Shown: positions 4,892-61,724 of the stretch, one piece after another
Numbering within the stretch: the stretch's first letter is position 1
How the letters are laid out: every line of letters begins with the position of its first letter
NCBI GenBank assembly: GCA_028711655.1
Contig: JAQTRU010000001.1
Span: 6,648 to 70,647, forward strand
Direction of reading: 5' to 3'
DNA: 64,000 nt
Source of the DNA: Patescibacteria group bacterium
Lineage (GTDB): Bacteria; Patescibacteriota; Patescibacteriia; Patescibacteriales; JAQTRU01
Position numbers and translations under genes: made by a program
The notes under the pieces: model-generated
What the model was told of the DNA's origin: nothing
What the model saw: the letters and a program-made list of their open reading frames with translations, nothing else
Databases searched by the model: none

Positions 4892-6259
4892 TTATTTTTC
4901 TTTATTTAAATTCAACTTTTTTTCTATTTCTTCTTTTATTTTTTTCTGGGTGATAACCTCCTGAATCCCGGAATCCATATCCCTGAATAAAATGGTCCCG
5001 TCCATAACTTCTTTCTGCCCCAAAATAAGGCTAAATTTCGCCCCTATCCGATTAGCTTCTTCTAATTGGACTTTTAGGCTGTCCTTGGTGAAAGCTTGCC
5101 GAATTTTAAATCCGGCCCGGCGCAACTCTTCAAATAAAACAAAAGCTTTGCGCTTGGCCTGCTCCCCTAACTGGGCTAAAAATATTAGATCCCCTTCCTC
5201 GCTTTTCAGGGGGATATTTTTTTCCCTTATTCTGGTTATCGTTCTTTCTATCCCCACGGCAAATCCGCAAGCCGGTGTCGGCCGACCGCCCATATATTTT
5301 ACCAGGCCGTCATACCGACCGCCGCCGCCCAAGGCTAGTTTGCTCGGCATCGCCCCGCCTTCTTCAACCGCCCAAATTTCAAATACGGTCCGGTTATAAT
5401 AATCCAACCCCCTTACCAAATAAGGGTTCAGATTGTAATTAATATCCAATTCGTCCAAATATTCCAAAACTTTAATAAAATGCTCCCGGCAACTGTCGCA
5501 TAAATAATCCACTATCTGCGGAGCTTCTTCCCTGGCTTCCAAACATTTTTCTTCTTTGCAATCAAGGAGCCGCAAGGGATTTTTTATTATTCTCTTCTTG
5601 CAATCGCCGCACAATTTAGACCGTCGCCCCCTCTCTTTGTAAAATTCAAGGAGTTTGGCCAAATATTCTTTGCGGCATTCTTCGCACCCAATGCTATTAA
5701 TCTGAATTTGGGCGTTAATCTGCAGTTCGCAGAAAAAATTATAAGCCAGTAGAATTAATAAAACATCAGCTACCGGCGCCTCTTCGCCGAATATTTCCAA
5801 ATTAAATTGAAATGACTGCCGATACCGGCCGGCTTGCGGTTTCTCATGCCTGAAAATAGGACCCAGCCAAAACATCTTAACCGGCTGGGGCAGGTTAAAC
5901 ATGCCATGCTCAATATAAGACCTCACTAAAGAAGGGGTGGCTTCCGGGCGCAAAGAAATTTTTTCTCCGTTTTTGTCAACAAAGGTATACATCTCCTTGG
6001 TGACGATGTCGCTGCTTCTGCCGCTTGATCTTTCATATAATTTTGTGTTTTCCAAAACCGGAGTTTCAATTCTTTTGAAACCATAAGCTCGCGCCAATTC
6101 CGTCGCTTTCTTTGTCACCAAATCCCAGTATCTGTATTCGTCAAACAAAACATCTTTCATTCCTTTTAAGCGGGAAAATGCGAAACCGCCGCTTTTCTCT
6201 TTTTCTTTTACTCTCCTGATTTTTGGCTTTTGATTTTTTGTGTTTTTTCTTCTCAGCAT
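4892..6259 (-). CDS. hisS: Histidyl-tRNA synthetase (class II); start may be the internal Met at ~6160
   Basis: Motifs RGLDYYNRTVFEIW and GGGGRYDGL. The N-terminal 33 aa is Lys/Arg-rich and may not be translated. Confidence 0.85.
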   Translation of the reverse strand: MLRRKNTKNQKPKIRRVKEKEKSGGFAFSRLKGMKDVLFDEYRYWDLVTKKATELARAYGFKRIETPVLENTKLYERSSGRSSDIVTKEMYTFVDKNGEKISLRPEATPSLVRSYIEHGMFNLPQPVKMFWLGPIFRHEKPQAGRYRQSFQFNLEIFGEEAPVADVLLILLAYNFFCELQINAQIQINSIGCEECRKEYLAKLLEFYKERGRRSKLCGDCKKRIIKNPLRLLDCKEEKCLEAREEAPQIVDYLCDSCREHFIKVLEYLDELDINYNLNPYLVRGLDYYNRTVFEIWAVEEGGAMPSKLALGGGGRYDGLVKYMGGRPTPACGFAVGIERTITRIREKNIPLKSEEGDLIFLAQLGEQAKRKAFVLFEELRRAGFKIRQAFTKDSLKVQLEEANRIGAKFSLILGQKEVMDGTILFRDMDSGIQEVITQKKIKEEIEKKLNLNKEK

Positions 6260-26722: not shown

Positions 26723-26989
26723 CGATTTAATCCTGTCGTCCTCGGACGACGGGGCAAGGATAACGAAATTTACCCGGGGCAACCCGGGTCTCAAATAGAA
26801 GTTAAAAGCTTCAACAGGGAAGAAAACCTGTTTAAAAACTTTCTCTTGGATAGTAAACCAAGTAAAAAACTTTAAGAGAGTTTTCAGCCAGAGGCTGATC
26901 CGCCTTTGGCGGAGATCCTGGCCTGCCCGCAAGGGCAGGTTAAAACTGGAGTACTGAAAACTTTCCTTGGATAGTAAACCAAGTAAAAA

Positions 26990-28603
<1,614 letters not shown>

Positions 28604-28718
28604 TCTAGGGAGATATTCGGTGAAAAAAACGAATGTGTCGACCTACTTAAATTTTTATAAAATCTAGGTGGGAAATTGGCGCCTGCTAGCTTTGAAATTT
28701 TGATCATCAAATAAAAAA

Positions 28719-37846: not shown

Positions 37847-38131
37847 ATGAATAAGGCAGGATTAATTGAAAAAATAGCCGAAGCCGCGGCCGTAACGAAA
37901 AAACAGGCTGAGGACATGATTGAAACTTTGGTAAAAACCATTGTCTCCGAATTAAAATCCGGGGGCGAGGTGACCATTGCCGGTTTTGGCACGTTTCTGG
38001 CCAGAACCCGCCACGCCCGGGGCGGTGTTAATCCGCAGAAACCGACGGAAAGAATTAAAATCCCTGAAGTAAAAGTGGCAAAATTCAAAACCGGAAAAAA
38101 TTTAAAGGACGCTTTAAAAGGCAAAATATAA
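37847..38131 (+). CDS. hup: HU-family DNA-binding protein
   Basis: MNKAGLIEKIAE ... GFGTFLARTRHARGGVNPQ. Confidence 0.9.
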   Translation: MNKAGLIEKIAEAAAVTKKQAEDMIETLVKTIVSELKSGGEVTIAGFGTFLARTRHARGGVNPQKPTERIKIPEVKVAKFKTGKNLKDALKGKI

Positions 38132-38154
38132 TTTTTTACAGGTTAAAATAAAAA

Positions 38155-38188
38155 AACAACCCGTTTGTTTTAAGGGGTTGTTTTTTAT
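38155..38188 (+). terminator. hup terminator
   Basis: aacaacccgtttgttttaaggggttgtttttt. Confidence 0.7.
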
Positions 38189-38245
38189 TGAAAAAAATAG
38201 GGTTATGCCGCTCTAGACATAACCCTCGAAGATAAATCAAAACTA

Positions 38246-39190
38246 TTAAAGATACAGCTGACGAAAATCTCTTATGATTTGTCTGGCGGTTTCCGAATTC
38301 TTTGGATCAAAAGGAATTTCCAGACAAATTATTTCCATTGTCCGGAGAGCTTCCTTAACCGCCGGAGAAAAATTGGCAAGGTGATCATGGGTGTCAATCA
38401 ATATTCCCTCGGGGGGTATGCCGGAGAAATGGCAAACCGGACTATGCGGCAAGGCAAGATAATCAGCAACGGCCTGATTAATATCTTTCCATTTCTCGGG
38501 GATTGCCATAAAACCCTTTTTTGCTTGGTTAACCATTACAGCCAAATGGGTAAAGTCAATCAGGCATTTCCAGCCCAACCCCAAAGATCCAAATAAATGT
38601 TCCATATCTTCCGGAGTGCCGCCAAACCCCCAGTAGCTGCTCCGGCTCCATGGGCTTGTGTCCTCATCTGGTGGATAAAAAGATTTACCAACGATCGGAG
38701 GAACGTTTTCCAGTAAAATATTATTCCCGGAAAACGCGGCCAGAGAGGAAACAACCCTTGAAAAAGATATATAATCCGCCTTGCTTTCCCCATAGCCAGG
38801 ATGAACTACTATCCCTCTTGCATTATATCCGAGTTCTTGAGTTTCTTTAGCTATCCTTAGCGACCAGCGCAAGGTCTCAAAATTCCAGTTCTCCCAAGTA
38901 TAAAAAGAAGAATGACGACCAAATACGCCGAGCTCATCAAAATTTTCACCGAAGTCAACGCCAATATTTTCCGCCCCGCAATGGATAACCACTTCTTTGC
39001 CCGGCAACCTTGATAAAATTTTCCTTAACCAAGATTTATCATCCGCCAGGCCGGGCGTAAAACAAGGGTGCGCCACTCGCAACTGGATACCCTGGATAAA
39101 ACCGGCTCTAAAAAGCCCTTGCTGGAGAGTAAAATATTCGTCTCCGGAAACAAGATTTTCCCAAAAAAGACCGCCAAAAATTTGAGGCAT
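38246..39190 (-). CDS. Hypothetical protein (possible TIM-barrel/sugar-phosphate isomerase-like), higher GC than neighbours
   Basis: 314-aa ORF with HCGAEN, VHPGYGE and THDHL motifs. Confidence 0.4.
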   Translation of the reverse strand: MPQIFGGLFWENLVSGDEYFTLQQGLFRAGFIQGIQLRVAHPCFTPGLADDKSWLRKILSRLPGKEVVIHCGAENIGVDFGENFDELGVFGRHSSFYTWENWNFETLRWSLRIAKETQELGYNARGIVVHPGYGESKADYISFSRVVSSLAAFSGNNILLENVPPIVGKSFYPPDEDTSPWSRSSYWGFGGTPEDMEHLFGSLGLGWKCLIDFTHLAVMVNQAKKGFMAIPEKWKDINQAVADYLALPHSPVCHFSGIPPEGILIDTHDHLANFSPAVKEALRTMEIICLEIPFDPKNSETARQIIRDFRQLYL

Positions 39191-39420
39191 GCCAGACCCA
39201 CCTTTCTGATTTTGTCTTTATTTGTTGATATTTTTAAAGGACCATTAAAATTATATCACTCTATCATATTTTCACTATTCAGTCAATCTAAAAATAATTC
39301 CAAAGGATAGGGGGGTTGTTTTTTATTGAAAAATATGCTAATATAATCTTGAACTCCCCTGGGAGTTCTTTAAATTAGCGCTCGTAGCTTCCGCCTTCGT
39401 CCTTCGATAAACTCAGGACT

Positions 39421-39450
39421 GCGGCGGGTAAGCGACTGGATAGAGCGCGT
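39421..39450 (+). other. tRNA-like 5' fragment (acceptor/D-arm-like), pseudo-tRNA
   Basis: gcggcgggtaagcgactggatagagcgcgtg shares ggatagagcgc with the tRNA-Arg D-arm. Confidence 0.3.
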
Positions 39451-39465
39451 GTTTTCCCTGCCTGC

Positions 39466-39487
39466 CGGCAGGCAGGGGACCAATTAT
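39466..39487. repeat. REP-like palindrome R1 copy
   Basis: cCCTGCCTGCCGGCAGGCAGGg. Confidence 0.85.
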
Positions 39488-39554
39488 TTTTTTGCCGTTT
39501 TGCTCCTGTGGTGAAATGGATATCACGCTTGGCGGAGTTTATCCCGCTTAAAGC

Positions 39555-39627
39555 GTACCCGTAGCTCAATGGATAGAGCGCTTGGCTTCGGACCAAGAGG
39601 TTGTGGGTTCGACTCCTGCCGGGTACG
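39555..39627 (+). tRNA. tRNA-Arg (anticodon TCG)
   Basis: Acceptor GTACCCG/CGGGTAC, D-stem GCTC/GAGC, anticodon loop CTTCGGA, T-loop TTCGACT. T-stem has two G-U pairs. Confidence 0.7.
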
Positions 39628-39654
39628 CTTTGTGCGGGAGACCAAGAATTTCGG

Positions 39655-39712
39655 GCCTGCCCCGCACCGCAAAGGGTGCGGGGTTCGAATCCTGACGGGA
39701 GCACACCTGGTA
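39655..39712 (+). other. tRNA-like 3' fragment (T-arm GGTTCGAATCC), pseudo-tRNA
   Basis: gcaccgcaaagggtgcggggttcgaatcctgacgggagca; no complete cloverleaf could be folded. Confidence 0.3.
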
Positions 39713-39745
39713 AAACAAAAATTCTAAGAATTACTTTTTCGACTC

Positions 39746-39765
39746 CCTGCCTACCGGCAGGCAGG
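39746..39765. repeat. REP-like palindrome R1 copy (variant)
   Basis: CCTGCCTACCGGCAGGCAGG, followed by ctgccgggcgcgctttgcgcgggagact, a near-repeat of the tRNA-Arg 3' end plus flank. Confidence 0.8.
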
Positions 39766-39818
39766 CTGCCGGGCGCGCTTTGCGCGGGAGACTGGGAACC
39801 AAAAATAAATCAATAGCT

Positions 39819-40085
39819 ATGGATTATCATCTTATTATTTATTTTTTAGCTGGCGTTCTGCAAGACTTCTTACTAACCCTTAATTGGCGATTTATAGCTA
39901 AAGAGAAAGCTATTTCTGCGGCCGTTCTTTCTTTCGCCGTAACTATAGTAACAATGCTTGTGCTTTATAATATTTTAACCCAACTTGATAAGCAACGGAG
40001 TCTAATCGCAATTATAGTTTATGCTTTAGGCATAAGCGCGGGCACAATTTTGGGAATAAAAACAAAAATTACTTCTAAAAATTAA
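39819..40085 (+). CDS. Small 2-3-TM membrane protein, hypothetical
   Basis: MDYHLIIYFLAGVLQDFLLTLNW... Confidence 0.4.
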   Translation: MDYHLIIYFLAGVLQDFLLTLNWRFIAKEKAISAAVLSFAVTIVTMLVLYNILTQLDKQRSLIAIIVYALGISAGTILGIKTKITSKN

Positions 40086-40147
40086 AAATTGTCGCAATAG
40101 CGACACCTAAATTTTACATTTTAAATTTTACATTTTAATTTATTTAT

Positions 40148-40221
40148 GGCTGGGTAGCTCAGTTGGTTAGAGCGTAGCACTCATAACGCTAAGGTCGAGG
40201 GTCCGATCCCCTCCCCAGCCA
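40148..40221 (+). tRNA. tRNA-Met (anticodon CAT; could be initiator, elongator or Ile2)
   Basis: GGCTGGG/CCCAGCC acceptor, anticodon loop CTCATAA, T-arm GAGGG-TCCGATC-CCCTC (C55 unusual). Confidence 0.65.
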
Positions 40222-40278
40222 CAAAGAATTTCAGATTTATGATTTTAGATTTTAGATTTAAATCTGAAATCGGCAATC

Positions 40279-40298
40279 CCTGCCTGCCGGCAGGCAGG
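40279..40298. repeat. REP-like palindrome R1 copy
   Basis: CCTGCCTGCCGGCAGGCAGG. Confidence 0.85.
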
Positions 40299-40317
40299 TT
40301 AAATCAAAAATCAAGGG

Positions 40318-40390
40318 GCACCGTTAGCTCAATTGGTAGAGCAGATCCCTCTTAAGGATAAGGTTGCAGGTTCGATTCCTGCACGGTGCA
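40318..40390 (+). tRNA. tRNA-Lys (anticodon CTT)
   Basis: GCACCGT/ACGGTGC acceptor, anticodon loop CTCTTAA, T-arm GCAGG-TTCGATT-CCTGC. Confidence 0.8.
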
Positions 40391-40397
40391 CAAAAAA

Positions 40398-40437
40398 ATC
40401 GTAGAGGTGAAAAGTTTTTTACCTCTACGATTTTTTT
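40398..40437 (+). terminator. Terminator after the tRNA cluster
   Basis: atcgtagaggtgaaaagttttttacctctacgattttttt. Confidence 0.75.
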
Positions 40438-40452
40438 GTACTATAATCCTAT

Positions 40453-41793
40453 TTAAAGATTCTTTTCCAAAAATTCTCTTACCTCTTTTTCTTTTTCCTC
40501 GGCGATTTCTTTCGTTTCCCCCTCAATCGTAATCCTAAGCAATGGCTCGGTATTGGACGGCCGAATATTAATCCACCAATCTTTATATTCAACGGTTAAG
40601 CCGTCCAATTCATCCTGCGCCCCGTCTTTAAATCTTTCCCGAGCGGCCGCTATTATTTCTTCGGTTTTTTCAGTTTTCATATTGATTTCGTCCAAACGGT
40701 AATAAGGATTAAGCCCGCTTACAATTTCTGATAATTTTTTTTCCTCTTTGGAAATCAGGGCCAGGAGGATAACAAAAGCAATAAAGCCGGAGTCGGCGTA
40801 ATAATTGTCCCGAAAACAGTAATGCGCCGAAACTTCTCCCCCCATAATTCCGCCATTGTCTTTCATGGCTTTGGCCACATTGACAAACCCGACGGCGGCG
40901 CGCAAAGGCCGGCCGCCCCAGTCTTTTACTTTTTCCCGAACCGCCCGGCTGCAAATCGCGTTATAGGCGATACCGGCGCCCGGTTCTTTTTTTAAAAAAT
41001 ATTTTGCTAAAATCAACAGGGTGGTGTCAGCTTGAATAAATTCTCCTTTTTCATCAGTAAAAAACAAACGATCGGTATCCCCATCCATTATTATGCCAAA
41101 ATTCGCATTTTCTTCCCTTACTTTTTCCGAAATCTGTACCTTTGATTCGGGCAGCAAAGGATTGGAAGGGTGGGCGGGGAAATTTCCATCAAGCTCAAAA
41201 TTCAAAGGAATTAGCCGGCAGGGCAATTTGGCAAAAAGCAAGGGCATAACTTTTCCGGCCATGCCATTGCCGGCATCAACCACAATTTTAAAAGGTTTGA
41301 TTTCCCCCATATCGGCGAAAGATAAAACATGCTTTAAATAATCGAAAATTACATCTCTCTCTTTAATTTCACCCCTTGGCTCTTTGGAAGCAAAATTTTT
41401 GCCGCGCAAAAATTCATATAATTGGTTTCCCCGTATCATCTCTATGCCGTTATCTCTCACCACCATCTTAAAGCCGTTATATTCTTTCGGGTTATGCGAA
41501 GCCGTCACCATTATTCCGCCGTCATATTTATAATGGCCGACAGAAAAATAAACCGCATCAATCGGCACCTGGCCCAAATCGTCAACATTAACCCCCTGGT
41601 CAGCCAAACCGGCGGCAAATCTTTCCCCGAGACTGTCAGAGCCGATTCTCATATCCCGGCCGATTGCCACCTTTTTCACGCCGGTTAAGTTGGCATAGGC
41701 CTGACCGGCTAAAAAAGCGGTGGCTTCATTCAGCTCATCCGGATAAATTCCCCGGATATCGTAAGATTTGAATATTTTTGGATTTAGAGTCAT
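40453..41793 (-). CDS. glmM: Phosphohexomutase (phosphoglucosamine mutase / phosphomannomutase family)
   Basis: Active-site TASHNPKEYNGFK; metal-binding DGDTDR. Confidence 0.8.
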   Translation of the reverse strand: MTLNPKIFKSYDIRGIYPDELNEATAFLAGQAYANLTGVKKVAIGRDMRIGSDSLGERFAAGLADQGVNVDDLGQVPIDAVYFSVGHYKYDGGIMVTASHNPKEYNGFKMVVRDNGIEMIRGNQLYEFLRGKNFASKEPRGEIKERDVIFDYLKHVLSFADMGEIKPFKIVVDAGNGMAGKVMPLLFAKLPCRLIPLNFELDGNFPAHPSNPLLPESKVQISEKVREENANFGIIMDGDTDRLFFTDEKGEFIQADTTLLILAKYFLKKEPGAGIAYNAICSRAVREKVKDWGGRPLRAAVGFVNVAKAMKDNGGIMGGEVSAHYCFRDNYYADSGFIAFVILLALISKEEKKLSEIVSGLNPYYRLDEINMKTEKTEEIIAAARERFKDGAQDELDGLTVEYKDWWINIRPSNTEPLLRITIEGETKEIAEEKEKEVREFLEKNL

Positions 41794-59391: not shown

Positions 59392-59519
59392 TTATGAGCG
59401 GGTAATCCCGCAAAGTTCGCTATCGCTCACTACGGGACGGGCGGGAATTGAAAAGAATTCTTCAAAAAATTCTGAAATCTAAAATCTGAAATCTAAAATC
59501 TGAAATTAACAGGGAGCGG

Positions 59520-59592
59520 GTAGGGGGAATCGAACCCCCATCTTCAGCTTGGAAGGCTAACATAATAAACCATTATACGATACCCGCAGAAA
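59520..59592 (-). tRNA. tRNA-Gly (anticodon TCC)
   Basis: rc: GCGGGTA...TTAGC-CTTCCAA-GCTGA...GGGGG-TTCGATT-CCCCC-TACCCGC-T. Confidence 0.75.
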
Positions 59593-61198: not shown

Positions 61199-61283
61199 CG
61201 CGCACTCCTCTTTTTTAAGGTTACATTGCCAAGATACCATTCTTAATTCTTAAATCTTAATTCCCCTACGGTGGGGATAGAGA

Positions 61284-61305
61284 CCTGCCTGCCGCGGCAG
61301 GCAGG
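61284..61305. repeat. REP-like palindrome R1 copy (extended variant)
   Basis: CCTGCCTGCCGCGGCAGGCAGG. Confidence 0.8.
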
Positions 61306-61326
61306 GACTCGTCCCGCACGGGTTGC

Positions 61327-61354
61327 CCCACATGCTCCTAAGGCATGCGTGCCC
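61327..61354. other. Duplicated fragment of tRNA-Leu (D-stem 3' side + anticodon arm) ~100 nt from the gene
   Basis: cacatgctcctaaggcatgcgtg is identical to 61432-61454 inside the tRNA gene. Confidence 0.6.
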
Positions 61355-61393
61355 CGCCTCATTTTAAAAAAATTTAACTATGAATACCACTGC

Positions 61394-61478
61394 TGGTGGG
61401 CAAGAAAGGACTCGAACCTTCACGCCTTTCGGCACATGCTCCTAAGGCATGCGTGTATACCAATTTCACCACTTGCCC
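61394..61478 (-). tRNA. tRNA-Leu (anticodon TAG), long variable arm, CCA encoded
   Basis: rc: GGGCAAG-TG-GTG-AAATTGGTATA-CAC-G-CATGC-CTTAGGA-GCATG-TGCCGAAAGGCGT-GAAGG-TTCGAGT-CCTTT-CTTGCCC-A-CCA. Confidence 0.8.
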
Positions 61479-61724
61479 ATATTTTATACTAAAAATGAGG
61501 CGGGGTAAATATACCAAACTGTCCCGTCCCTTTTAAAGGCGCGGGGTTTCACTATATCCCCCTTGCTCCTTTATTCTTAAACCAATTTGTATTTTATGTC
61601 AATGTTTTTATTATAGCAAAAATTGTGTTATGATAATAATATCCATAAATAATTAATTATCGCGTTCTTCCGCGTGAGTCCGCGTTAGTCAGTATAAGTC
61701 CGCGTGAGTCCGCAACAAAAAAAT

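Follow-up and report, generated by a model that had tools for sequence, protein, structure and literature searches.

The stretch of DNA analyzed here (the window) is 64 kb of a metagenome-assembled genome from the Patescibacteria (Candidate Phyla Radiation), and our subject is the start of a small tRNA cluster within it that is composed of tRNA-Arg(TCG), a DUF5698 gene, tRNA-Met(CAT), and tRNA-Lys(CTT). The surrounding genes encode ClpP, RNase Y, YmdB, HU, phosphoglucomutase (PGM), a bactofilin-like protein, and an Elp3-like radical-SAM enzyme, and the closest homologs of the PGM are all from Patescibacteria metagenome-assembled genomes. At 39378–39818 three tRNA-Arg genes lie nested one within the other, here termed resident, mid, and inner from the outside inward, and only the innermost is intact. 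An earlier interpretation made without database searches (the sequence-only reading) had described this tRNA-Arg as embedded in tRNA-gene debris, and our analysis bears that description out, with the debris resolving into a three-layer nest around one intact copy. All features of the nest are on the plus strand. For comparison we used loci from other assemblies (JGI, ENA, NCBI, and IMG/VR), which are referred to below by L numbers (e.g., L001).

Three nested tRNA-Arg genes

The inner tRNA-Arg(TCG), at 39555–39627 (39627/8), is the sole functional copy and the only tRNA that ARAGORN and Infernal identified in the region (67 bits against RF00005, for which the gathering score is 29). No normal second tRNA was recovered here by either program, nor by ARAGORN with introns of up to 400 nt and lowered thresholds; a minus-strand "tRNA-Gln" with a 103-nt intron, reported by ARAGORN at the 80% threshold, was judged to be spurious. 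The gene is part of a 106-nt inserted unit (39534–39639) that also includes a 21-nt leader (39534–39554, GGAGTT-TA-TCCCGCTTAAAGC) and a 12-nt trailer (39628–39639). The last 13 nt of the leader pair with the trailer, and leader and trailer together prolong the inner acceptor stem to a 20-bp helix, as seen in an inverted repeat of 20 nt with 90% complementarity (39542–61/39620–39). The inner copy is a mosaic: its body is 89–90% identical to the L130 and L001 alleles, it has the acceptor stem (GTACCCG) and leader (TCCCGCYTAAAG) of the only tRNA-Arg allele of L124/L125, to whose leader the inner leader is homologous, and its trailer (CTTTGTGCGGGA) agrees with the native trailer of the locus, being homologous to 39778–39789. 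Because acceptor stem, leader, and trailer match orthologous alleles, we conclude that the unit came from the orthologous locus of a related lineage, and these matches show an origin that is foreign but related.

The inner unit interrupts the mid gene, a tRNA-Arg-like pseudogene whose parts were delineated from the minimum-free-energy fold and by reconstruction. Its 5′ half (39502–39533) contains the acceptor strand GCTCCTG, the D arm GTGA/TCAC, the anticodon stem strand CTTGG, and C32. On the far side of the inner unit, a first 3′ part (39640–39655) supplies G37 and A38, the anticodon stem strand CCAAG, the variable loop AATT, and the T stem strand TCGGG, and a second 3′ part (39684–39703) supplies the T loop TTCGAAT, the 3′ strand of the T stem CCTGA, the acceptor strand CGGGAGC, and the discriminator A. 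The two are separated by a 28-nt GC-rich hairpin, hpT (39656–39683; 10-pair stem, z-score −3.2), inserted at the T-stem/T-loop junction, and removal of hpT restores the T arm TCGGG-TTCGAAT-CCTGA. With both insertions removed ARAGORN still finds no tRNA, the loop retaining only C32 and G37–A38; when four anticodon-loop bases are also supplied it returns a perfect cloverleaf in which all 21 stem pairs form. As the cloverleaf needs these four supplied bases, the 106-nt unit must have replaced mid positions 33–36. The statement in the sequence-only reading that no cloverleaf can be completed from these fragments is correct for contiguous sequence; however, 39684–39703 pairs across the intact tRNA with 39502–39533. 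Direct reading of the junctions between inner and mid gives a 3-nt microhomology at each (left, TGG; right, GAC). The mid allele (GCTCCTGTGGTGAAATGGATATCACGCTTGG) is only ~70% identical to every other tRNA-Arg allele seen, and at six stem pairs it differs from inner in both bases, with pairing kept throughout. This combination of divergence and double-sided change without a broken pair shows that mid was formerly a functional tRNA of another lineage.

The outermost gene, the resident, begins in a conserved context. A promoter-like block (GGGGGTTGTTTTTTATTGAAAAATRTGCTAATATAAT, 39310–39347, with a TATAAT box at 39342–47) is near-invariant in an alignment of the window, L130, L001, and L117, and its conservation and position lead us to regard it as a putative promoter of the cluster, although a consensus promoter scan gave it no score. 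It is followed by a leader hairpin (GAACTCC-CCTG-GGAGTTC, 39351–39368) that is native to the locus, all relatives having it ahead of their simple tRNA-Arg. Directly 3′ of the conserved TTTAAATTA leader lies resident piece A, tRNA positions 1–12 (GCGCTCGTAGCT, 39378–39389), which aligns with the starts of the orthologous tRNA-Arg genes of L130, L001, and L117; this outermost 5′ fragment lies beyond the part covered by the sequence-only reading and was missed there. Next, hp1, a 45-nt compound sequence that folds as a hairpin (39390–39434, termini TCCGCC…GGCGGG), stands in place of 2 nt (CA) of the resident D arm. The relatives lack hp1, and its core (GTCCTTCGATAAACTCAGGAC) was found again as a hairpin motif at two other Patescibacteria loci (L041 and L019). 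Piece B (ACTGGATAGAGCGC, 39435–39448) comprises the D loop and the 3′ strand of the D stem and matches the L130/L001 allele, including an extra D-loop C that is missing from inner and mid. The segment 39421–39450, previously taken for a tRNA half, thus has two components: 39435–39448 is indeed resident D loop and D stem, whereas 39421–39434 is the 3′ arm of hp1 and not an acceptor stem.

Where the 5′ strand of the resident anticodon stem and the anticodon belong there is a palindrome, REP1 (TCCCTGCCTGCCGGCAGGCAGGG, 39455–39477), of the repetitive extragenic palindromic (REP) type described below. It is followed by GACCAA (39478–39483), which we tentatively assign as resident piece C, the end of the anticodon loop and the 3′ strand of the anticodon stem, by analogy with the pseudo-tRNA-Lys of L124; its position is as expected, and it agrees with GGACCAAG of the ancestral allele over 6 nt only. 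An 18-nt AT-rich spacer (39484–39501), with no homolog in the relatives or in the rest of the window, separates the resident 5′ remnant from mid. On the 3′ side, a 40-nt AT-rich spacer (39704–39743), for which no homolog was found, leads to REP2 (39744–39765), which has one mismatch to REP1 and abuts the resident 3′ end. There, piece D (CTGCCGGGCGCG, 39766–39777) consists of the end of the T stem, the acceptor strand CGGGCGC, and the discriminator G, and pairs with 39378–84: GCGCTCG (39378–39384) and CGGGCGC (39770–39776) form seven of seven acceptor pairs. The native trailer (39778–39818) runs to the DUF5698 ATG (39819) and is orthologous in L117–119, L130, and L132 (flanks 85% identical). 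ARAGORN returned a cloverleaf for the reconstructed resident gene, as it did for the reconstructed mid, and as it stands the resident is without most of its anticodon and T arms.

The near-copy of the tRNA-Arg 3′ end and flank that had been noticed earlier is real: 39616–39642 and 39766–39792 are 89% identical over 27 nt, a repeat that takes in 15 nt of native downstream flank, and its 17-mer core occurs at just these two sites in the 64 kb (0.25 expected by chance). Because the trailer runs into the DUF5698 start as it does in relatives and the acceptor strands pair, we identify the near-copy as the resident gene's own 3′ end and trailer. Pieces of the 5′ end are duplicated as well as those of the 3′ end (39378–89, 39435–48, and 39502–33), in nested symmetrical order, and the ~375 nt between the resident 5′ and 3′ ends consist solely of tRNA copies, hairpins, and short spacers.

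The perfect palindrome CCTGCCTGCCGGCAGGCAGG is dispersed in the window, with four copies (39455–77, 39744–65, 40277–98, and 48236–58) against none expected by chance and a variant at 61284–61304; four of the five, counting the variant, are in or beside tRNA or pseudo-tRNA sequence. Its near-identical copies are present or absent among relatives, L123 having an empty site at the position of the 40277–98 copy, and on these grounds we class it as REP. It also occurs in 35 IMG/VR contigs (L082–L116), one of which, the high-GC phage contig L106, has a predicted tRNA-Met whose long variable arm consists of it. Neither a transposase nor a target-site duplication was identified for the palindromes, and the insertions delete 2–4 target bases. 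Palindromic insertions have accumulated in the dead outer shells of the nest, at loop-coding positions. REP copies had been suggested in the sequence-only reading as the makers of the pseudogenes; they do lie within the pseudogene pieces and help to destroy them, but they leave the extra tRNA copies unexplained.

Folded as a single strand, 39495–39715 has a free energy of −100.8 kcal/mol (z-score −4.6 relative to shuffles), and in the minimum-free-energy fold the intact tRNA sits atop a long helix inside a second cloverleaf. That the whole nest folds coherently is what would be expected if the outer layers were functional, as an intron-containing, split, or permuted tRNA (the latter two having been raised in the sequence-only reading) or as a tRNA-like scaffold RNA, with the inner tRNA and the hairpins excised from the RNA, and a pseudo-tRNA-Lys hairpin kept with compensatory changes in divergent lineages (see below) points the same way. 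We regard this as extremely improbable. The ARAGORN intron modes recover nothing, four mid anticodon-loop bases are missing, the mid T loop is interrupted, the resident arms are incomplete, the host is a bacterium, and relatives manage with a simple gene. The fold has no bulge-helix-bulge, but a 9-nt/2-nt asymmetric internal loop followed by the 20-bp helix, with no 3-4-3 motif. Rfam searches of 39000–40600 at E ≤ 10 gave only sub-threshold noise, from plastid and miRNA families mirroring tRNAs; a match to YrlA (18.9 bits against a threshold of 69) was rejected as far too low, and the group I catalytic core (RF00028) had no match, the positive control at L113 scoring 86 bits. The nest does resemble the intron-containing, split, and permuted tRNAs of archaea (PMC3218864, PMC4033280) in having halves apart in the DNA and a complementary leader helix. 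It differs in its bacterial host, in the lack of a bulge-helix-bulge, in halves that cannot be joined into an anticodon-bearing tRNA, and in its further disruptive insertions.

Uninterrupted alleles and further nests in related genomes

Five independent relatives (L130, L001, L117/118/119, and L132) have one uninterrupted tRNA-Arg at the orthologous site, in an interval of ~105 nt compared with ~420 nt in the window. In L001, whose PGM is 86% identical, the simple tRNA-Arg starts with GCACTCGTAGCTCAACTGGATAGAGCGC right behind the conserved leader hairpin and TTTAAATTA. Because these five relatives have a single uninterrupted gene, the nest is a derived insertion complex, and the indel polymorphism that the sequence-only reading had proposed to look for is present. 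L130 and L132 were the usable members of three loci found by a metagenome scan with the DUF5698 start; a metagenome scan with the promoter/leader pattern of the cluster had no match. Synteny of the tRNA cluster was gone beyond ~79% PGM identity in the PGM-anchored loci L002–L080, among which partial-copy BLAST detected no further nests, and the contigs for P0004, P0008, and P0011 end short of the tRNA cluster or lack it. Relative to PGM and HU/YmdB/RNase Y, the whole Arg-(DUF5698)-Met-Lys cluster of L001, L117–122, L130, and L132 has the opposite orientation to that of the window, L123, and L124/125, and the DUF5698 gene is missing from L001 and L124/125.

A duplicated tRNA 3′ end had been read, before these comparisons, as the footprint of insertion or excision at a tRNA gene by an integrase. 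The footprint part of that claim holds, in that a native 3′ end has been displaced by an insert that carries a replacement tRNA. An integrase-mediated element in tRNA-Arg, later almost wholly deleted, would account for the 27-nt, 89% direct repeat of the tRNA 3′ end and flank and for the indel polymorphism relative to relatives, and integrating elements commonly generate fragments of tRNA genes (PMC9897764) and likewise leave a displaced tRNA piece beside an intact incoming copy (attL/attR). We nonetheless consider an integrase very unlikely. There is no integrase-like open reading frame (ORF) within ~5 kb, and Pfam finds no recombinase among the ORFs of 34.1–46.2 kb; the 123 nt between the repeat copies (39643–39765) hold only pseudo-tRNA, hairpin, spacer, and REP, with no cargo. 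An attL/attR pair would give direct repeats of the 3′ end only, whereas here the 5′ fragments are duplicated too and the copies are nested rather than tandem, with insertion in the anticodon arm and loss of anticodon bases. The repeat also contains 15 nt of native downstream flank, and where a like architecture occurs elsewhere (see below) it has a GIY-YIG gene, never an integrase.

A second nest is present in the window, on the minus strand, where an intact tRNA-Leu(TAG) (61394–61478), bracketed by a perfect 14-bp inverted repeat (61492–61505/61352–61365), lies inside a pseudo-tRNA-Leu spanning 61272–61561. The 5′ piece of the pseudogene (GGGGATA-TA-GTGAAA, 61547–61561 and 61510–61522) is split by a hairpin (61523–61546); a 23-nt copy of the anticodon arm at 100% identity (61329–61351) lies on the other side of the intact gene, followed by a T arm containing the REP-like palindrome (61284–61304) and by the 3′ acceptor strand (TATCCCCA, 61272–61283), the complement of the 5′ acceptor strand. 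Insertion here was at the boundary of the D arm and position 26, not in the anticodon loop. ARAGORN does not recognize the reconstructed outer pseudo-tRNA-Leu, and the evidence for this nest is the direct pairing together with the identical 23-nt copy.

Nests are also found in the relatives. The elongator tRNA-Met, intact in the window (40148–40221), has its anticodon loop broken by a unit with another tRNA-Met in L001, L117–119, L121–123, and L132 (e.g., L001 7563–7795 and L117 5866–6175). In these two loci, and also in L118, L119, L123, and L132, the inner tRNA-Met lies between inverted repeats (CCCCGTCACAAAT and ATTTGTGACGGGG), and the 3′ half of the outer tRNA-Met has gained no extra hairpin in L001, one in L118, L123, and L132, and two in L117 and L119. 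In L124 and L125 the intact tRNA-Met is preceded by a 5′ pseudo-half of its own kind. Their intact tRNA-Lys comes after one 5′ pseudo-half of tRNA-Lys, or two in tandem, and is followed by a small GIY-YIG ORF and then by a tRNA-Lys 3′ pseudo-part. In 11 of the 12 cases seen, the break points are in the anticodon arm.

These repeat-flanked units raise the question of whether they and the bare GC hairpins are one non-autonomous family, resembling miniature inverted-repeat transposable elements (MITEs) or REPs, that enters tRNA loops, in some cases with a compensating tRNA as cargo, with no homing endonuclease involved. Palindromic elements of the REP/MITE type insert into genes, as do the Rickettsia palindromic elements and the Correia elements, and the palindromes described here resemble them in being short, GC-rich, dispersed, and insertion-polymorphic between relatives. 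The inner tRNAs lie within inverted repeats (Arg 20 nt; Leu 14 nt, perfect; Met 13–19 nt), the hairpins and REPs are cleanly inserted in D, variable, and T loops, many have termini like (T)CCCGCC…GGCGGG(A), and the REP is multi-copy and absent from the L123 site that corresponds to 40277–98. Against a common transposable origin, 2–4 target bases are deleted with no target-site duplication, and, unlike known elements, the palindromes pile up in the loop positions of dead tRNA genes. Further, the sequences flanking the inner tRNA-Arg have native homologs in relatives, as leader and trailer at this very locus, and hence are not transposon ends. Because unsplit tRNAs in this genome also have complementary leaders and trailers, and L117 has the trailer half of the repeat without the leader half, the 20-bp helix is probably a native precursor-processing helix. 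Taken together, we find such an element family unlikely as the origin of the nests. The intact tRNA-Met (40108–40157/40211–40260) and tRNA-Gly (flanks of 59513–59587) have AT-rich, mutually complementary repeats of the AAATCTAAAATCTGAAATC type, those of tRNA-Met having arms of 50 nt with 72% complementarity, and leader-trailer pairing may be a general trait of tRNA precursors in this organism.

The source being a metagenome-assembled genome, the nest could in principle be an artefact in which strain variants of one tRNA-Arg locus were joined, and the Logan contig of the same sample does stop at 39587, within the inner tRNA. That contig, however, is identical to the window over 38089–39587, a segment that takes in resident pieces A and B, hp1, REP1, the 5′ half of mid, and its junction with the inner leader; equivalent nests are present in independent JGI, ENA, and NCBI assemblies, and at ~70% identity the layers are too diverged to be strain variants. 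An artefact is therefore hardly credible.

GIY-YIG nuclease genes at tRNA junctions

The small GIY-YIG ORF seen in L124/L125 (PF01541, E = 3.7e-17) led to a wider set of loci. ORFs of this kind, of ~85 aa, lie between pseudo-halves and an intact tRNA in L124/L125 (L124 5469–5720, minus strand), L113 (562–792), L142 (twice, 465–719 and 1501–1755), L145 (1501–1758), L147 (124–384), and L148/150/151 (L148 1501–1761). The four further homolog families that were looked up are all in non-syntenic tRNA clusters and share one architecture: a 5′ pseudo-half, the GIY-YIG ORF, and an intact tRNA of the same type, with a 3′ pseudo-part also present in L148, L124, and the tRNA-Glu copy of L142. Each ORF is 6–27 nt from the intact tRNA, in most cases a tRNA-Lys and in one a tRNA-Glu. 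In four of the six loci analyzed for upstream copies, a set that left out L113, tRNA positions 1–23/28 are copied directly upstream of the ORF at 96–100% identity (L142-Lys, L145, L147, and L124); the exceptions are L142-Glu, with a copy of 12 nt only, and L148, where the copies are downstream. The tRNA-Arg nest of the window has this same architecture without the ORF.

In the pseudo-tRNA-Lys copies a GC hairpin stands in place of the 3′ strand of the D stem and the 5′ strand of the anticodon stem (L124 ~5830–5990 and ~5390–5440; L142 1465–1485; L147 88–104; L148 1462–1476 and 1850–1864). Its position is kept across divergent lineages and its sequence shows compensatory changes (TCCGCC…GGCGGA vs. 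TCCGGC…GCCGGA), and because of the latter we suggest that the hairpin may have a function rather than being a product of random decay.

L113 has the same arrangement, a GIY-YIG ORF together with a 5′ pseudo-half whose D loop contains the REP palindrome. In its downstream tRNA (820–1470), the anticodon loop contains a group I intron (RF00028, 86 bits, 1182–1416) with an HNH-type ORF. Group I introns with homing-endonuclease genes are known from bacterial tRNAs (PMC3984707), and the nests share with them insertion in the anticodon loop, association with GIY-YIG or HNH genes, and a spread like that of intron homing. In contrast to such introns, the insert in the window has no ribozyme, and the interrupted gene is replaced by the complete tRNA in the insert instead of being spliced.

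A closer precedent is the phage T4 protein SegB, a homing endonuclease of the GIY-YIG type whose gene lies in a tRNA cluster; it recognizes a motif of the tRNA T arm and drives preferential inheritance and segmental amplification of tRNA genes (PMC2330249, PMC13096335). The relatives' loci are like those of SegB and other Seg-type proteins in having a nuclease gene next to a tRNA with duplicated tRNA segments. They are unlike them in being on a bacterial chromosome rather than in a phage and in encoding a bare catalytic domain of ~85 aa, whereas SegB and I-TevI have a joined DNA-binding domain. Moreover, the window is without the nuclease gene, and nested pseudo-halves around an intact copy have not been described for SegB.

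Proposed serial replacement of tRNA-Arg

The reading that we favor, at a probability of roughly 60%, is a serial replacement of tRNA-Arg in which a donor gene was inserted into the old copy following breaks in the anticodon arm, in a manner resembling SegB homing. What the sequences show is that the native resident gene was interrupted centrally by DNA bearing the diverged tRNA-Arg, mid, which was later interrupted in its anticodon loop by the inner copy with ~21 nt of leader and ~12 nt of trailer, and that the outer shells have since gathered hairpin and REP palindromes at loop-coding positions. In each round, we infer, a double-strand break in the anticodon-arm region of the then-working tRNA gene was repaired by capture of a donor tRNA gene via very short homologies (TGG and GAC for inner). 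Since the repair would have captured a donor tRNA gene, the cell would have kept a working tRNA-Arg, with the old halves left as flanking debris. By analogy with the junctions in the relatives, the likeliest source of the breaks would be a small free-standing GIY-YIG nuclease whose gene has since been deleted here.

Several points weigh against this reading. No GIY-YIG or other nuclease gene was found in the 64-kb window (tblastn, best E = 0.25), and the remaining spacers of 18 and 40 nt are too short for an ORF remnant to show. The GIY-YIG proteins of the relatives (77–105 aa) match PF01541 only, apart from a weak match to T5orf172, and as these proteins of ~85 aa have no DNA-binding domain, site-specific cleavage of tRNA genes by them is hypothetical, the one indirect pointer to it being the 96–100% identical copies of tRNA 5′ parts beside the ORF. 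The junction microhomologies are just 3 nt, and we infer the order of events, with outer as older, from nesting and decay alone. The donor of mid was not found, and scans of viral contigs with the mid 5′ half were empty; those with the inner allele and with the inner leader junction likewise gave no match, and a search of viral contigs with the GIY-YIG protein gave weak partial matches only, which were not used. In addition, REP1 with its T-rich run is terminator-like by score, which bears on how the inner tRNA would be transcribed should the cluster have no promoter but the upstream one.

The short junction homologies are also compatible with a process requiring no dedicated nuclease, in which foreign tRNA genes were taken up by natural transformation and entered by homology-facilitated illegitimate recombination, with tRNA genes as the short anchors. 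The tRNA-Arg alleles of the clade are mosaic, the inner copy having an L001-like body with an L124-like acceptor stem and leader; the junctions have only 3-nt microhomologies; and the cluster is rearranged and inverted among relatives. Transformation leaves unexplained, however, both the clustering of breaks in the anticodon arm (11 of 12) and the presence of a GIY-YIG gene exactly at the junction in six independent loci, and we consider it distinctly unlikely.

Beyond serial replacement at this locus, a broader possibility, to which we give somewhat less than even odds, is that the Patescibacteria harbor previously undescribed mobile cassettes that replace tRNA genes. A GIY-YIG gene for a protein of ~85 aa would travel with a tRNA gene or its 5′ part, enter the anticodon arm of the resident gene, and leave hairpin-marked pseudo-halves, and repeated rounds would produce Russian-doll loci, among them the tRNA-Arg and tRNA-Leu nests described above, and horizontal turnover of tRNA alleles. 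If this is true, the conserved junction hairpin would have a function within the element, serving either as an immunity patch or as a site recognized by its structure.

Other features of the window may be noted. Between HU and the tRNA cluster, on the minus strand, there is a 314-aa ORF (38246–39190) that is missing at that position in relatives; checked as a candidate mobile-element gene, it had no match in Pfam, NCBIfam, PHROG, or PDB. Its homologs form 39 clusters, all from Patescibacteria, two of which match PF01261 (xylose isomerase-like TIM barrel/AP endonuclease 2 fold). The 16S rRNA gene (26991–28604) is 1614 nt long compared with a model of 1533 positions, and so has ~80 nt extra; several GC-rich hairpins (26732–26939) lie directly upstream of it, and no 23S rRNA gene is adjacent to it within the window.

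Fragments of tRNA genes beside mobile DNA (PMC9897764) and SegB are known already. In the literature consulted, the coverage of which was incomplete, we came across no account of a tRNA gene nested within the pseudo-halves of an older copy, and none of minimal GIY-YIG genes at junctions of this kind in Patescibacteria, an absence that is only suggestive of novelty. A practical consequence is that tRNA finders report one normal tRNA-Arg here and overlook the two dead copies that surround it, and similar nests could pass for split or intron-containing tRNAs or could break assemblies, as with the Logan contig that stops inside this locus.

The sequence of the nest is debris, yet its history is unusually legible. 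Repeated replacement of essential tRNA genes by incoming alleles in these reduced genomes is indicated by this locus and by those of its relatives. If confirmed, the process would extend tRNA-linked homing of the SegB type from phages to cellular chromosomes, would involve a minimal nuclease of ~85 aa with a specificity for tRNA genes that is possibly guided by structure, and would provide a mechanism for the mosaicism of tRNA alleles in the Candidate Phyla Radiation.

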